Shown here: positions 7,036 through 60,132 of the stretch, piece after piece
Layout of the letters: each line of letters opens with the position of its first letter
Position numbering within the stretch: position 1 is the stretch's first letter
Origin: Promethearchaeota archaeon Loki_b31
GTDB lineage: Archaea; Asgardarchaeota; Lokiarchaeia; Sigyniarchaeales; SOKP01
Assembly: GCA_005222975.1 (NCBI GenBank)
Contig: NJBI01000009.1
Span: forward strand, 20,449-84,448
DNA length: 64,000 bases
Reading direction: 5' to 3'
Made by a program: the position numbers and the translations under genes
The notes under the pieces: model-generated
The model's database searches: none
Told to the model about the DNA's origin: nothing
The model's input: only the letters and a program-made list of their open reading frames with translations

Positions 7036-7319
7036 AATATTTCACGTGAATATGTTTTTAAAAAAGCTTTTAGACTAGATTAGTCGTAAGTTTATAAAAG
7101 AAAAAAAGAAGTTTCCGACAGATTTATGAATGCCAAATTAACTTGTTTTAATTTAACTTCTATGGGTAATTTCATTATGGTAAAAATTAAAATAAATCTC
7201 GAAAACTAACTTTTCTTACCAGAGCGCTTCTCTCTTAAAAAAAGATATAACTTAATCCAACAAAAAATGTCAGTAAAGAATATATGTTTAATTGTCTTTA
7301 TATTTTTCTTGAAAATACT

Positions 7320-14354: not shown

Positions 14355-15640
14355 ATGGAGTTGATACAAAAAAACGTCAGATTTAGACCAAGTAAAAGGG
14401 ATCAACGCTCGACAGATAAAGCTCTTGCAAGAGAGCGGTATTAGCACGGCGGAAGCTTTAGCAATGTCCCCACATAACATCATATCGGAGATCGACGGGT
14501 TAGGCGATAAAACAGCCAAGAAACTGATTTGGAATGCGCGAAACGCGTTAGGTATGACTGAGTTCATAACTGCCGATGACATCGACGAGAACACCGAGTA
14601 CATTACCACTGGCTCTTCCGAATTAAACAGAATTTTAGGCGGCGGATTCCAAACCGGAAAACTTACCGAAGTGTACGGACCCTTTAAGTCCGGTAAAACC
14701 AATTTAGCTCATACGATCGCTGTAACCATCCAGCTTCCTAAAAAAAAAGGAGGTTTAGGTTCCACAGTAGCCTACATCGACACCGAAAATACTTTTGCTA
14801 AGGAAAAAATCAAAAGAATCGCCAAAAGGTTTGGACTGGATCCGAAGAAGGTTCTATCGCAAATTTATCACGCCAGGATTTATTCATCGGACCACCAATC
14901 GCAAATGATTCAAAAAGCTGAAACTTTATGCAAAACTCGAAATGTGCGTTTAATTGTAGTAGACAGTTTGATGGCGCTTTTGCGGGCCGAATATGTGGGT
15001 ATTGGCATGTTAGCTCGTCGACAAAGCTTTTTGAACAATATGATACACGCCCTTTCCCGGGTTGCAGAGACATACAATTGTGCTGTTCTTCTTACCAATC
15101 AAGTTTCGACTAAGATGATGGGAATGTTTTCAGGAAACGACGCAATTGGCGGAAATAGTGATAAGATATTTCATCAATCACTTCTAAATCGTAGCCCATG
15201 GCTGCCACTTTCGTGTGATGTTTAAAACTAAAGGTTTCTCTTCCAATAATTCGTTAAAGCGGAGAGCTATAATAGTGGATGCGCCAGACTTGCCACCTGA
15301 AGAAGCAGAGTTTTACATAACGAGTGTAGGAATTGCCGACACGGAAAAGGGAGAGGTTCCCGAAGCTCAAGGCTTAGATTTCGAAGTCGAGACATTGTAC
15401 GAAGAAGAGAGTAACGCCGAAGAGAGCGAAGTTTCCGATAATGGTAATGGTAACCATTCGCTCATTGATGTTAAAGGAATTGGAGCCGGCACCGCAAAGA
15501 ACTTAATAAAGGTCGGAGTAGGCTCTGTAAAAGAGTTGGTAAGTTCTGACCCCGAAAAAGTGGCTTCTAAAATTAACGGAGTCTCTTCTAAAATGGTCCT
15601 TGAATGGCAAACCAACGCAAAGACCTTGTTGAGCGTTTAA
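14355..15640 (+). CDS. radA: RadA/Rad51-family recombinase with C-terminal HhH domain; interrupted by a 31-nt putative intron (15157-15187) and a 1-nt frameshift in A7 (14368-14374)
   Basis: N-terminal HhH (DLDQVKGINARQIKLL), TTGSSELNRILGGG, GPFKSGKT, YIDTENTF, VVDS, LTNQV; removing 15157-15187 joins AIGGN to IVAHGCHFRVMF. Confidence 0.85.
15157..15187 (+). other. putative BHB-type mRNA intron in radA (31 nt)
   Basis: central helix GGAA/UUCU, bulges AUA and AAA, inner stem GUGAU/AUCAC; canonical cuts restore frame and motif. Confidence 0.8.
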
Positions 15641-17869: not shown

Positions 17870-18169
17870 ATGAATAAAATATTGCAATTTTTATTTGCAT
17901 TTTTCTTTTGTCTTTGTGTTATAGTTATATTTTTTATTGGTTGGAGTATAATAGATGAGTGGATAATATTTTTCGATTACGGTTGGAATTGGCACGAATA
18001 TACCGCCACTCCTATAATTTTATGGGATATTTTTTTCGATAATATATTGACAATACTTGTTATTACTACATGTATTACTTCAATTGGATTTTTTTTATAT
18101 CATTATTATTATCATTATAGAGAAAAAAAAATAAAAAGTGAATTATCGAAGCATCAAATAGCGATTTAA
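17870..18169 (+). CDS. small membrane protein
   Basis: 99 aa, 2 TM helices. Confidence 0.55.
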   Translation: MNKILQFLFAFFFCLCVIVIFFIGWSIIDEWIIFFDYGWNWHEYTATPIILWDIFFDNILTILVITTCITSIGFFLYHYYYHYREKKIKSELSKHQIAI

Positions 18170-45303: not shown

Positions 45304-45621
45304 TTATACATTATTCCATACACTATTAAAGATTTCTTCAGTTTTTTCTATAATCATTTTATGTTCTATTACTTTTGTCATAGGAAATAAGACCATTATA
45401 TACTTATGTTCCCTTTTTGAGATTGAAATCAATTTTTTTTCTGAAGAAATTACAATGCTATTTACCTCACCAGCTTCAAATTCTTTTGAAAATTTTTTGA
45501 CTAAATTTATTAACATTCCTCCAATTGAGATTTGACGTGGCGAAGAAAATTTAGGAGGAACTTCGGAAAAAACAACTTTTTCTTGTATTTCATCAAATAC
45601 AATAATTCCTTCTACTTGCAC
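45304..45621 (-). CDS. roadblock/longin-like small domain protein
   Basis: clear paralog of the C-terminal half of the 46301-47116 protein. Confidence 0.65.
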   Translation of the reverse strand: MQVEGIIVFDEIQEKVVFSEVPPKFSSPRQISIGGMLINLVKKFSKEFEAGEVNSIVISSEKKLISISKREHKYIMVLFPMTKVIEHKMIIEKTEEIFNSVWNNV

Positions 45622-45724
45622 TTTATATTTTAATTCCTCCAGTTAATTTTAAATTAATTTAATAAATATTTATCGAAATATAATTTCTTTTCGTCAGCAT
45701 ATTTAAAATTTTGTTAAAAAAATC

Positions 45725-46282
45725 TTATAAATTACCTTTATATTTTTCATATAATACTCTAATTATTTTTTGGAACGCTTCGGTCACCCCTTGATTTGTT
45801 TTCGCAGAAGTTCGAAAAACTCCAATAAAGTTCTTCTCTTTAATGAAGTTTTGAATATATGTATCATCTAACTTATCTTCATTAATTAAATCTACTTTAT
45901 TTGCAAAAATAATGATAGGAATATCACCACAACTCTGTTTAATGTCCTTATACCAATCAACAATGTGATTGAGACTTTCTTTACCAAGATCATTTTCTTC
46001 GAGGGAATAAACAATAATTGCAGCTTTACTTTCTTCATAAAAATCAGAACGTAAAAATTCAAACTCCTTTTGACCAGCAATATCCCAAAAATATAATTTA
46101 CATTCGTCTCCATTTATTTTCTCATCATAAAAAGAAAATTGGGCGCCTATAGTAGAGATATAATCTTCCTCAAAAGTACCATGAGTATACTTTTTAATTA
46201 GAGATGTTTTTCCAACTCCCCCATCTCCAATAACAGTTATTTTAAATACAAATTTTAAATGTGTATCATTCATTAGTTTCAA
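45725..46282 (-). CDS. Rab/Ras-like small GTPase
   Basis: GDGGVGKT, STIG, WDIAGQ, NKVD, TSAK; no C-terminal Cys. Confidence 0.95.
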   Translation of the reverse strand: MKLMNDTHLKFVFKITVIGDGGVGKTSLIKKYTHGTFEEDYISTIGAQFSFYDEKINGDECKLYFWDIAGQKEFEFLRSDFYEESKAAIIVYSLEENDLGKESLNHIVDWYKDIKQSCGDIPIIIFANKVDLINEDKLDDTYIQNFIKEKNFIGVFRTSAKTNQGVTEAFQKIIRVLYEKYKGNL

Positions 46283-46300
46283 TCAAATCCATTCGAATTT

Positions 46301-47116
46301 TTATTTTAATAATTCAATCTTTAACATTTTCAAAATGTCATCTAAAATTTCTTCAGTTTTTTCCACAATTATATTAAGTTCAATATTTTTTGTTTTGGAA
46401 AATAAAACAATTATGTAAATATAATCTCTTTTCGAGACACAAATCCACCGATTCTCTGAAGAGATTAATATACAATGTACATCTCCTCCTTGATATTCAT
46501 ATGATAATTTTTTAGCAAAATTTATTAACATTCCACTCATCGAAATTTGTTTTTTAGATGAATATTCTTCTGGAACTTTAGCAAAAAGAATTTTTTCTTG
46601 GTTTTCATCAAATAGAATTATTCCTTCGGATTGCACCTTATAACCAAATTCTTCTAATAAGCCTTCAATAAGCGGTTGTTCCATGAACTGTAATATGTAA
46701 TTGTTAAAATCTGAGAAGATGGTTATATTTCCATTACGAATTGGGAGGTGTTCTTGATATACTTCTAAAAATTTAGTTGATATTTTGTTTAGGATGTAAA
46801 TAATTACTTGATTTGGTAGATCGTCATAGCATTGTATACAAAAAGTAATTTTCTCGAAGTTATTATAAAATAATTTATGACCACTCATTATTAAGGATTT
46901 AACTATCGTACCTGGAATTAATTTCTCACCAAACTTCTTAATAGCTGTGAAAAATCCAGACACTATATTTTCATCCAAATTTTCAGGTTTTATACCACAG
47001 CTTGTCAAACAAACCCCTGCGTTATCATAAATATAAATTGATTCAACATAATTTTCTATTGCTTTTTTTTCCTCTAATAACTCGCCCTTGTCCGTACTCA
47101 TATTTCTATCACCCAT
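46301..47116 (-). CDS. tandem longin/roadblock-like domain protein
   Basis: IYIYDNAGVCL...SGFFTAIKKF...F..Y...F.DF longin-like pattern plus a second similar domain. Confidence 0.7.
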   Translation of the reverse strand: MGDRNMSTDKGELLEEKKAIENYVESIYIYDNAGVCLTSCGIKPENLDENIVSGFFTAIKKFGEKLIPGTIVKSLIMSGHKLFYNNFEKITFCIQCYDDLPNQVIIYILNKISTKFLEVYQEHLPIRNGNITIFSDFNNYILQFMEQPLIEGLLEEFGYKVQSEGIILFDENQEKILFAKVPEEYSSKKQISMSGMLINFAKKLSYEYQGGDVHCILISSENRWICVSKRDYIYIIVLFSKTKNIELNIIVEKTEEILDDILKMLKIELLK

Positions 47117-48406: not shown

Positions 48407-49754
48407 ATGAAAAAAGTAGCTATTATTGGAGTTGGAATTACTCCTTTTAAAGCAAGATATATGGATAAAACGCATTTCGAATTAGCGTATGACGCGACCA
48501 AGCTCGCTTTGGAAGACGCAAATAAAAATGGGGCTGAAATAACTCATAAAGATTTAGAATCAACGGTTTATGGAATATATAATGAACTTTTTGAACGCCA
48601 ATTCATGCCCGACATCTTTATAAACTCGTACATCGGAATGAACAACAAACCAGGAACTCGAATCGCGTCTGGGGGCGCAACTGGGGGGTATACTGTACGG
48701 ATGGCTTACTCTGAAGTTGCTTCAGGGCTTTCGGATCTGTGCCTCTGCTTAGGCGTAGAAAAGTGTAATGACTGTTACGACGAAAAAACGGGCACGACAA
48801 CACCAGAGGTTCTAAATGCAATCGCTTATTCTGCCGATATGACTTACGAAAAAATGTTGTAATATTCTACACATCTCGTAAATATCCTATGGGCATGATG
48901 GCGGCCAGCTCTTATGTAAGCATGGTTAATGCGCACTTTGAAGAATTCGGAAATCCCACCGAGGATCAAATGGCTTAACACTATAATATTTAGTTAAGTG
49001 GGCTAATGTCTCGGTTAAGAATCATGGAAACGCTTTGTTGAATCCAATTGCACAATCACCTATGAAGCTATCTCTTGATGACATCCTCTTCTCAAGGATA
49101 ATATGCTATCCTTTCAAGATGCTTGATTGCTGCCTTTATTCCGAAGCTTCGGCAGCTTTAATATTAGCAAGCGAAGAAAAGGTAAAGGAATTAAAGATTG
49201 AGAATCCAATTTGGATAACTGGTGTAGGTGCTGCGAATACAGATTGTTTTATCGGTAATCGGGAAGAAATAGGGCGGTTATATTCAAATGTTTACGCAGC
49301 AAAGGCAGCTTACAAGATGGCGGGATTGGACTATAATAAGATCAAACAACAAATCGATTTGGCAGAGCTTCACGATGCCTTCTCTGGACATTACTTGTCA
49401 TAAAGACAATTTGCCAGTCAAGAAGTCATCTCCTATGAAGAACTCGGTTTTGTATCTTTTGGAGAAGGAGGTCCATGGATTGAAAAAACATTTGAAAAAC
49501 CTGGAGAAGGCCCTTGGTTAGAGGGAGAACTCCCGTGTTGTCCTTCAGGTGGCTTGATAGGTTGTGGCCATGCTGTTGGTGCGACGGGAATTATGAGCAC
49601 TGGAGAGGCTACCCTTCAATTAAGAGGGGAGGCAGGTAAACATCAAGTACCAATTGCTAAAGGGAGAGCTATATCTCATTCTATTGGAGGTCCTGGTGCC
49701 GCCTATGCTGCGGTAATCGTAATGACAAACGAGGAGGGGTTGAAAAAACCATGA
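48407..49754 (+). CDS. SCP2-type thiolase-family protein encoded in 4 exons (48407-48850, 48883-48977, 49007-49389, 49420-49754); 418 aa after splicing
   Basis: KKVAIIGVG, GVEK, VSVKNH..ALLNP, ELHDAF, EELGF, SGGL..GH.VGATG; removing three BHB inserts (91 nt) gives one 1257-nt ORF. Confidence 0.88.
48851..48882 (+). other. putative BHB mRNA intron 1 of thiolase (32 nt)
   Basis: central helix UACG/CGUA, bulges AAA and AAU, inner stem AUGU/ACAU. Confidence 0.8.
48978..49006 (+). other. putative BHB mRNA intron 2 of thiolase (29 nt)
   Basis: central helix GGCU/GGCU (2 GU pairs), bulges UAA and AAU, inner stem CACU/AGUG. Confidence 0.75.
49390..49419 (+). other. putative BHB mRNA intron 3 of thiolase (30 nt, in-frame stop)
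   Basis: central helix CUGG/CCAG, bulges ACA and UCA, exon stem CUUCU/AGAAG, inner stem UUGUC/GACAA. Confidence 0.88.
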
Positions 49755-50251
49755 GCGAAGAATTTCGATCACATGAAATCAGGGATAAAATTCTAATAGA
49801 ATATAAGTATACTATGGGCGGGCAATCAAAATTCTTCATAGAATTAATGAATAATAAAAAGATATTAGGAACAAAATGTAAGAAGTGTGGTAAAGTATGG
49901 ATGCCTCCAAGAATTAACTGCTCAGAATGCTACGAAGATACCGATTGGATTGAGCTCCCCCACGCAGGTACGATTCAAATTAGTACGATAGTGTGGTATG
50001 GGGCTGCTGAGTTTATTCAAAATGTTCCCTACGGTTGTGCCTTTATTAAATTAGATGAAGCAGATACAGCATTGTTTCAAGGTGTATTTTCAGAAAATTT
50101 AGTACCTTCAAAAATTAAGAAAGGACAACGAGTTAAAGCAGTGTTTAAAAGAAGGGAGGATCGAGAAGGAAGAATGACAGATTTCTTCTTTGTTCCCGAA
50201 GATGAGTGGGAAAGATGGATTAATAAACCAGAATTTGAAGGTGGTGAGTAA
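49751..50251 (+). CDS. DUF35 Zn-ribbon/OB-fold protein (thiolase partner)
   Basis: GTKCKKCG...PPR..CSEC, then OB fold; overlaps the thiolase stop (ATGA). Confidence 0.9.
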   Translation: MSEEFRSHEIRDKILIEYKYTMGGQSKFFIELMNNKKILGTKCKKCGKVWMPPRINCSECYEDTDWIELPHAGTIQISTIVWYGAAEFIQNVPYGCAFIKLDEADTALFQGVFSENLVPSKIKKGQRVKAVFKRREDREGRMTDFFFVPEDEWERWINKPEFEGGE

Positions 50252-50253
50252 AA

Positions 50254-50625
50254 TTGGGTATTGCAAGTGAAAGTTTAAGTAAAATTGTTGAAAATATGAG
50301 CGGGAACGCAAAAGTTGAAGCTGTTTTTGTAACTAATATTGGTGGTAAAGAAGTTGATTGGGATATGATTTTCCAATTTAACTTGGATAACGAGGACTCT
50401 TTTTATCTTAAAGTAAAGGGAAGAAAGGCTGAACTGATTAATGGAACCGCTTCAGATCCTAACATAATTATGACGGGAGATAATAACGCAATTGTAAAAA
50501 TCTGCAATGGTAAGGGGGATTTCACTCATGCGATTAGTAGAGAAGAAATAAAAGTTACAAAAGGAAAAATCATTGATGTAATACGCCTAACTCGAGCAAT
50601 AACCCTTGTTTTGAAAACTAAATAA
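50254..50625 (+). CDS. SCP2 sterol/lipid-binding domain protein
   Basis: FQFNLD...FYLKV...G....PNII...IKV.KG pattern; operonic with thiolase and DUF35. Confidence 0.75.
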   Translation: MGIASESLSKIVENMSGNAKVEAVFVTNIGGKEVDWDMIFQFNLDNEDSFYLKVKGRKAELINGTASDPNIIMTGDNNAIVKICNGKGDFTHAISREEIKVTKGKIIDVIRLTRAITLVLKTK

Positions 50626-58578: not shown

Positions 58579-60132
58579 ATGAATAACAATAATTATGATG
58601 AAAGCAGAGTAATTTCTAAATACCCCGTTATAGTAATTGGAGCTGGACTTGGCGGACTTGGTGCTGCATGTCAACTTGTTCTCAGAGGAGAAAAAGTATT
58701 ATTACTTGAGAAACACAATGTGCCTGGAGGATTTGCTACTTCTTTTGTTAGAGGGCGGTTTGAATTTGAGGGCGCATTGCACGAGTTAAGTGATATTGGA
58801 ACGAAAAATAATAGAGGCAGTCTTTATCGATTCTTGGAAAAATTAGGTATAGTTCCAAATAAACTAGAATTTATTCAAGTTCCCGAGTTTTATCGAAGCG
58901 TGTTTAGCGATGGTTACGATGTAACACTTCCACTTGGGATGGAAGAGTATACTAACAAATTAATTGAATTATTTCCTTCTGAAAAACGAGGGATCGAAGA
59001 ATTTATAGAAATGTGCAAAGCTGTTTTGGCTGGTATTCTATTTATTGCTTCTAAAGGTGGAAAATTTTCACCACAAGACATGCTTAAAGAACACCCATGG
59101 ATTCCGCGAATTTCAGGCCTTACATTATCAGAATTATACAAGAAATTTTTTAAAGATGAGAAATTGATGGCTGTAATCTCTCAACTATGGGGATACATTG
59201 GATTACCGCCAAGCAGAATAAATGCCTATACTTATATTGCGATGCTCATATTTTATTTAAATTGGGGCGCTGCTTTTCCAATTGGAAGATCACATTCTTT
59301 AACAACTTCAATGGTACAAGCATTTGAAGAACTCGGTGGTGAAATAAGATATAACGCGTTGGTTGATCGTATTCTCGTGGAAAATGGAAGAGTTAGCGGA
59401 GTAAAACTCCTTAACGGAAGCGTTTATCTTTGTAAAGCAGTTATTTCTAACGTTAATCCAATATGTACAACCATGAAAATGCTTCCTCAAGATGTAGTGC
59501 CAGATAGTTATAAGAAAATGATTTATGCTCCAGAAATTGGTCCATCTGGTTTTTCTGTTTACATTGGATTAAGTGCCTCTTATAAAGATTTAGGATTTAC
59601 GGCTCATGAAACATTTATTAACGATTTATACGATACAAATAAAGCGTTCGAGAATTTCAAAAAATTGGAACCACCAAAATACATGGTCGCTGCTTGTTAT
59701 AATCACATTTACGAAGATATTTCTCCTCCAGGAACAACTCAATTAGTTTTAACTACTTTACAGATGGGTAAACTTTGGCAAAGCATCGCACCTGATCAAT
59801 ATTTCCGCTTAAAGGATAAGATCGCGGATGGAATGGTATCATTGATCGAAAATACTATTTGTCCTGAAATTCGCGATTATATCGAAGTAGCTGTAGCTGC
59901 AACGCCTTTGACATATTACCGTTATTCTAAAAACCTAGAGGGCGCTATCTATGGAACCACTCAAGATGTTACAAATGGCCCTTTACTTCGATTAAAAAGT
60001 AGAGGTGCAATTCCAGGTTTATATCAAGTAGGTGCATGGACTAATTTTGGTGGTGGATTTTCGACTACTATCTTAAGTGGGAGGATAGGAGCAGGGATAT
60101 ATTTAGGCGATAAAATTAAAGGGAGGATCTAA
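58579..60132 (+). CDS. phytoene desaturase / retinol saturase-like FAD oxidoreductase
   Basis: GAGLGGL, LEKHNVPGG, ATPLT..RY, GAIYG, GLYQVG. Confidence 0.85.
   Translation: MNNNNYDESRVISKYPVIVIGAGLGGLGAACQLVLRGEKVLLLEKHNVPGGFATSFVRGRFEFEGALHELSDIGTKNNRGSLYRFLEKLGIVPNKLEFIQVPEFYRSVFSDGYDVTLPLGMEEYTNKLIELFPSEKRGIEEFIEMCKAVLAGILFIASKGGKFSPQDMLKEHPWIPRISGLTLSELYKKFFKDEKLMAVISQLWGYIGLPPSRINAYTYIAMLIFYLNWGAAFPIGRSHSLTTSMVQAFEELGGEIRYNALVDRILVENGRVSGVKLLNGSVYLCKAVISNVNPICTTMKMLPQDVVPDSYKKMIYAPEIGPSGFSVYIGLSASYKDLGFTAHETFINDLYDTNKAFENFKKLEPPKYMVAACYNHIYEDISPPGTTQLVLTTLQMGKLWQSIAPDQYFRLKDKIADGMVSLIENTICPEIRDYIEVAVAATPLTYYRYSKNLEGAIYGTTQDVTNGPLLRLKSRGAIPGLYQVGAWTNFGGGFSTTILSGRIGAGIYLGDKIKGRI

Follow-up and report, generated by a model that had tools for sequence, protein, structure and literature searches.

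A thiolase-family gene of Promethearchaeota archaeon Loki_b31 (Lokiarchaeia) was found to be interrupted by three inserts of 29 to 32 nucleotides (nt), which are very probably messenger RNA (mRNA) introns of the transfer RNA (tRNA) type, spliced by the tRNA endonuclease EndA and the ligase RtcB. The gene lies in a stretch of 64,000 nt (contig NJBI01000009.1, positions 20,449 to 84,448), here called the window, and coordinates are positions in it unless another contig is named. The genome is a 3.5-Mb metagenome-assembled genome, 92% complete with 6% contamination. DNA alignment of the window thiolase with 19 orthologues located the three inserts. Their excision at the cut points of bulge-helix-bulge (BHB) motifs yielded a single frame of 418 amino acids (aa), the product being 85–96% identical to 12 uninterrupted orthologues (gap-free in nine of the 12), and no lesion besides the inserts was present in the thiolase frame.

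Structure of the interrupted thiolase gene

Exon 1 (48407–48850, plus strand, as are all parts of the gene) comprised 148 codons from an ATG start, matched Thiolase_N (E 1.5e-5) and was 88–99% identical to most orthologues of the genus. It was followed by intron 1 (48851–48882), a phase-0 insert of 32 nt with an in-frame TAA at 48860–48862, absent from intact orthologues. The exonic bases TACG (48845–48848), invariant in all carriers, formed four of four Watson-Crick pairs with the intronic bases CGTA (48877–48880). These arms were followed by bulges at 48849–48851 and 48881–48883, and inside them lay an inner stem of 6 bp (48852–48857 with 48871–48876).

Arms, bulges, stop codon and insert length were all as given in the original prediction, which a model had made from the letters of the window. 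It had also held that three junction registers restore the frame and that BHB geometry singles out 48851–48882. Exactly three registers (starting at 48849, 48850 and 48851) were found to restore YE|YP, and the last was the sole one with a 4/4 helix, the other two pairing at 1/4 positions. Exon 2 (48883–48977, 95 nt), described there as thiolase-like, aligned without gaps to intact orthologues in the very alignment that had been named as a check; searched alone, this exon gave no Pfam match. In intact orthologues, and likewise in independent contigs of a relative, the empty site lay exactly at the predicted junction 48850|48883.

Intron 1 follows the BHB rule, with a 4-bp helix between exon end and intron end and predicted cuts between the second and third bases of two 3-nt bulges. 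This helix had been called perfect, which proved correct for the central helix but not for the exon-side outer helix of 1 bp only, so that intron 1 is a relaxed BHB and falls outside the strict hBHBh' class. Because relaxed forms are a described subclass (PMC5829648), the short exon-side helix argues against a strict BHB, not against a BHB-type motif. On the intron side the 6-bp stem provided the flanking helix, and compensatory changes among carriers affected three of its pairs. Given three registers to choose from, about 5% of random stretches would contain a 4/4 helix, and the fold of intron 1 taken alone is unremarkable. What lifts the case above chance is comparison: exact absence in orthologues, the recurrence of intron 1 in other genomes, where its pairs show compensatory changes, and a geometry that is shared by 14 independent sites.

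Intron 2 (48978–49006, 29 nt, phase 2) had the helix GGCU/GGCU, including two G.U pairs, and its variants in relatives were of 29 and 30 nt. Exon 3 (49007–49389) aligned with the orthologues. The length of intron 3 (49390–49419, 30 nt, phase 1) keeps the frame, but a TAA lay at 49401; its helix was CUGG/CCAG, and it was a strict BHB with the exon-side flanking helix present (minimum free energy (MFE) z = -3.58). Exon 4, including the stop codon (49420–49754), matched Thiolase_C_1 (E 1.5e-17). All three introns contained a stop in the incoming frame, began with A, formed an AU-rich hairpin and showed a 4/4 helix at the EndA offset.

Insert sites across orthologues and other genes

The site of intron 1 was also occupied in six further sequences (another genome of the genus, four metagenome contigs and one more genome), giving with the window copy seven distinct intron sequences of 31, 32 or 34 nt. 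From the metagenome pattern matches, 10 of 16 plus two more (12 in total) were set aside as non-orthologous. The lengths at this one site differ by one and two bases and so fall in two frames, which excludes a fixed frameshift; only removal tolerates them. The central helix was invariant across six aligned intron 1 sequences. In the stem, three of the six pairs were altered on both sides and 98% of cells were paired (22–45% in slid controls), a covariation that comes from few, related sequences and is to be read as support, not as a probability. The exonic arm TACG was present in all carriers of intron 1 compared with 13 of 75 non-carriers.

Among 83 orthologous thiolase loci (a set that includes a few genomes twice), 24 held 45 inserts, all of 29–35 nt, at seven sites. 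A 4/4 helix was present at five of eight called sites, the eighth being a misplaced copy of the intron 3 site, compared with 0.78 expected from intron shuffles with equal register freedom. The ratio of nonsynonymous to synonymous substitution rates (dN/dS) was 0.01–0.18 over all exons, those behind stops included. For exon 2 it was 0.01–0.09 where computable. Five loci with the stop-bearing intron 3 gave 0.03–0.18 for exon 4, compared with 0.03–0.05 in intact pairs. All exons are under purifying selection.

The gene tree implied four or more gains or losses of intron 1, six of intron 2 and five to six of intron 3. All five intron 1 carriers on the tree also held intron 2, and intron 3 was common to 11 tree loci. 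Within the genus the introns have repeatedly come and gone. Lateral spread by long co-conversion tracts was not supported as a general route: one pair was suggestive (around introns 2 and 3, 13 of 15 and 13 of 17 codons were identical, against an overall 52%), but the pattern was not general (49/83, 133/260 and 277/542 identical codons against about 50%), nor did such tracts extend through exon 2. Separately, one gene copy (L256 / L002, the G004 thiolase) contained four introns, at codons 127, 153, 180 and 308, and some other thiolase copies had two introns just 16 nt apart. The L233 thiolase carried at codon 308, the intron 3 site, a 29-nt insert of unrelated sequence, which would be either an independent gain or a full turnover. 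Another protein, P0061 (159 aa, 98% identical), stopped a few residues past MGMM, which suggests an eighth insert site near codon 154. Upstream of the thiolase of one relative, an MFS gene (L274 1-965) was called in two pieces (128 and 185 aa), compared with 407–429 aa elsewhere.

Inserts of the same class occurred elsewhere in the genome. A motif-free census, in which 934 genes were compared with 2.8 Mb from two relatives, revealed nine stop-carrying inserts of 29–32 nt in seven genes. All started with A; the helix was 4/4 in seven of them and 3/4 in two. The genes, named by reading their sequences, were the window thiolase (three inserts), a second thiolase and cobO-, dnaG-, acr3-, proteasome-alpha- and lsrF-like genes. 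One extra stop-carrying insert was 144 nt long and lacked a helix. Searching in the opposite direction, through 892 genes in the retrieved parts of the two relatives, gave no insert of the 29–32-nt class. At about one insert per 100 genes, some 25–35 per genome would be expected, a figure that misses introns shared with the references. An ab initio scan combining BHB motifs with frame joining gave no enrichment over shifted controls, and its profile-filtered list was mostly noise; the genome count therefore rests on the homology census only.

In the only aIF2-gamma gene found in the genome, the P-loop was split by an insert of 29 nt (host contig C32, about 7216–7244, minus strand) that shifted the frame and had a 4/4 helix. 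The gene was interrupted at this position in 12 of 39 genus matches, often the sole match in genomes 98–100% complete. aIF2-gamma is essential in Haloferax (PMC3828320). The only dnaG copy found was likewise interrupted. Within the window, a radA-like gene contained a 31-nt insert of the same build (15157–15187, plus strand; 4/4 helix), the removal of which left a single open frame; most radA-like orthologues of the genus were open for 410–433 aa. A second radA-like copy, on host contig C63 at about 17909–17939, had 89% DNA identity and an identical 31-nt insert, and is either a duplication or strain contamination. A probable tRNA-Gly gene (host contig C14, about 58690–58790, minus strand) showed in its D arm an insert of 29 nt built in the same way. 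This gene carried at least two inserts and was miscalled by ARAGORN. Only about 20 tRNAs were found genome-wide, and more interrupted tRNAs are likely hidden in the host genome. A tRNA-intron donor of the inserts was sought and none was found.

Proposed splicing and competing explanations

In the proposed mechanism the gene would be transcribed, and the last exon bases would pair with the 3′ end of the intron in a 4-bp helix with two 3-nt flanking bulges, closed by the AU-rich hairpin of the intron. An (alpha-beta)2 EndA would cut between the second and third base of each bulge (48850|48851 and 48882|48883) and RtcB would join the exons. Splicing at two more sites would be needed before the mature mRNA could be translated into the 418-aa protein. 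The host genome encoded two EndA paralogues, on contigs C13 and C79, and RtcB, on contig C84, and one EndA subunit matched solved splicing endonucleases at E 3e-34. Asgard EndA has been described as (alpha-beta)2, with an L1 loop linked to relaxed substrates (PMC5829648). The host EndA is thus predicted to be able to cut relaxed motifs, with the ligase present. In an intron-rich relative, the frame of one EndA paralogue (G004:C157:9804-10052) was 105 aa, compared with about 202 elsewhere; this gene may itself bear an intron.

Over 14 sites in eight genes, 53 of 56 helix positions paired, a count inflated by the picking of registers for the best helix among the protein-allowed ones. Swapping the 3′ arms among the 14 sites gave a mean of 26 paired positions and a maximum of 44 in 100,000 trials, indicating that the 3′ end of each intron is fitted to its own exon. 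The picking of registers weighs against splicing by EndA and RtcB, as do several further points. The fold of intron 1 was weak alone (MFE z = -0.96), its exon-side helix was limited to that single pair and its stem contained one A.C mismatch. EndA was encoded in all 40 relatives, with or without introns in the thiolase gene, so that its presence is permissive only. Three successive splicing steps may be inefficient. No spliced RNA was seen: the single true RNA run (X3) covered 49583–50384 and no junction. Protein searches found no junction-spanning protein more than 96% identical, the best full-length match being 91%. Two other runs, X1 (probably DNA) and X4 (library type not known), showed a join exactly after 48850 in a sequence about 87% identical. 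The joined form was rejected as splicing; at that identity it is the intron-less allele of a relative.

The inserts might instead be removed by a route other than EndA and RtcB, either DNA excision in part of the population or another hairpin-reading nuclease. Their patchy presence on the gene tree, with the precise gains or losses of intron 1 counted above, and the existence of joined alleles as DNA in relatives would fit such a route. It is nevertheless improbable: there was no target-site duplication (direct repeats of 0–3 nt), both helix and stem admitted G.U pairs, consistent with RNA, and the cut offsets equalled the EndA rule. Moreover, no second copy of any intron sequence was found in the genome, except in the duplicated radA-like gene.

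A pseudogene broken by small palindromic insertions is less probable still, even though each insert either brings in a stop or disrupts the frame, several other thiolases are present in the genome and most orthologues are without an insert. The low dN/dS extended to every exon, also between carriers with saturated synonymous sites; apart from the inserts the frame was intact, and these were confined to 29–35 nt with conserved structure. The sole aIF2-gamma and dnaG copies found were interrupted alike.

Just as hard to accept is that the inserts are kept in the mRNA and skipped by the ribosome, through frameshifting or through programmed bypassing as in T4 gene 60 and the yeast mitochondrial byps elements, which are similar in size to the inserts. 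Such skipping would agree with the short hairpin, the early stop and the GCT codon on both sides of intron 2. However, take-off and landing codons matched at one of seven sites, and lengths at one site differed by non-multiples of three. What was conserved was the pairing of exon and intron ends at the EndA offset, and bypassing has no need of this pairing.

An assembly or sequencing artefact, conceivable for a metagenome-assembled genome with that level of contamination, deserves almost no credence and is refuted by independent assemblies in which the intron recurs with base changes. Group I, group II and spliceosomal introns were rejected on the length of 29–35 nt, the first base A and the lack of any match in an Rfam search of the inserts, and a miniature transposable element on the direct repeats of 0–3 nt and the lack of dispersed copies.

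Known systems, consequences and neighbouring genes

The eukaryotic HAC1/XBP1 mRNA contains a non-spliceosomal intron, a single regulated target, which is cut by Ire1 at two stem-loops and joined by tRNA ligase. It resembles the inserts in being short and frame-shifting and in the use of an endonuclease with a tRNA ligase, but Ire1 acts at two stem-loops and no BHB is involved. The cbf5 pre-mRNA of Desulfurococcales and Sulfolobales has a BHB-like intron of 16–44 nt, for which splicing was shown (Watanabe 2002; Yoshinari 2006; Yokobori 2009, PMC2738675), and cbf5 was named in 2020 as the only earlier coding-sequence case (PMC7714728). Both systems combine a short BHB-like intron in coding sequence (29–35 nt here) with lineage-specific loss and a two-subunit EndA. 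In cbf5 a single old intron occupies one site of one gene and its splicing was shown, whereas in the thiolase case, where splicing is predicted, one gene has three introns, orthologues together have seven sites, at least eight other genes of the genome are affected and the distribution within a genus is patchy. The 5′ untranslated region of Haloferax volcanii HVO_1309 likewise holds a BHB intron in an mRNA, one cut by EndA (Schwarz 2020, PMC7714728); it lies outside the coding sequence with no frame to restore, while the thiolase inserts lie inside. A study of non-canonical Asgard introns dealt with tRNA genes only, made no mention of mRNA and put the highest load in Jordarchaeia and Atabeyarchaeia (Goswami 2026, bioRxiv 10.64898/2026.10.13.758758). 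The introns described there share with the present inserts repeated gains, BHB boundaries and a permissive (alpha-beta)2 EndA. No report of Asgard mRNA introns was found in the literature searched, which had subscription journals outside its coverage, and a 2026 Asgard review made no mention of introns.

Lokiarchaeia probably splice many mRNAs with the tRNA endonuclease: each genome would hold tens of BHB micro-introns, one gene could contain several, essential genes would be affected too, and introns would come and go within a genus. If so, prokaryotes closely related to eukaryotes would have multi-exon protein genes by a spliceosome-independent route. With a four-exon metabolic gene and an essential translation factor that is split, mRNA splicing would be an everyday process in an Asgard lineage. 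The system would offer a living case of intron gain and loss in one genus and a testable link between the spread of tRNA and mRNA introns. It would also be a hidden source of split or truncated Asgard gene calls. The NCBI record of the window gene holds exon 1 only, as a 151-aa protein, and fragments of 150, 263 and 311 aa from relatives are in the databases; Asgard gene inventories thus miss or truncate such genes.

The thiolase gene was followed by a ChsH2/DUF35-family partner gene (49751–50251, plus strand; zf-ChsH2 and OB_ChsH2_C), which overlapped the thiolase stop and kept this order in relatives, and by an SCP2-domain gene (50296–50625, plus strand; SCP2 E 3e-4), probably the third gene of the operon. 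The window thiolase and an aligned orthologue had GGATGG where solved archaeal thiolases show ACASGG, the usual catalytic cysteine being missing. With the adjoining ChsH2 partner, the protein could act as an Ltp2-like aldolase or serve as a non-catalytic subunit rather than work as a true thiolase. On the minus strand at 45304–47116, open reading frames for a small Rab-like GTPase and roadblock/longin-like proteins, identified by reading their translations only, formed a cluster of typical Asgard eukaryotic-signature genes.
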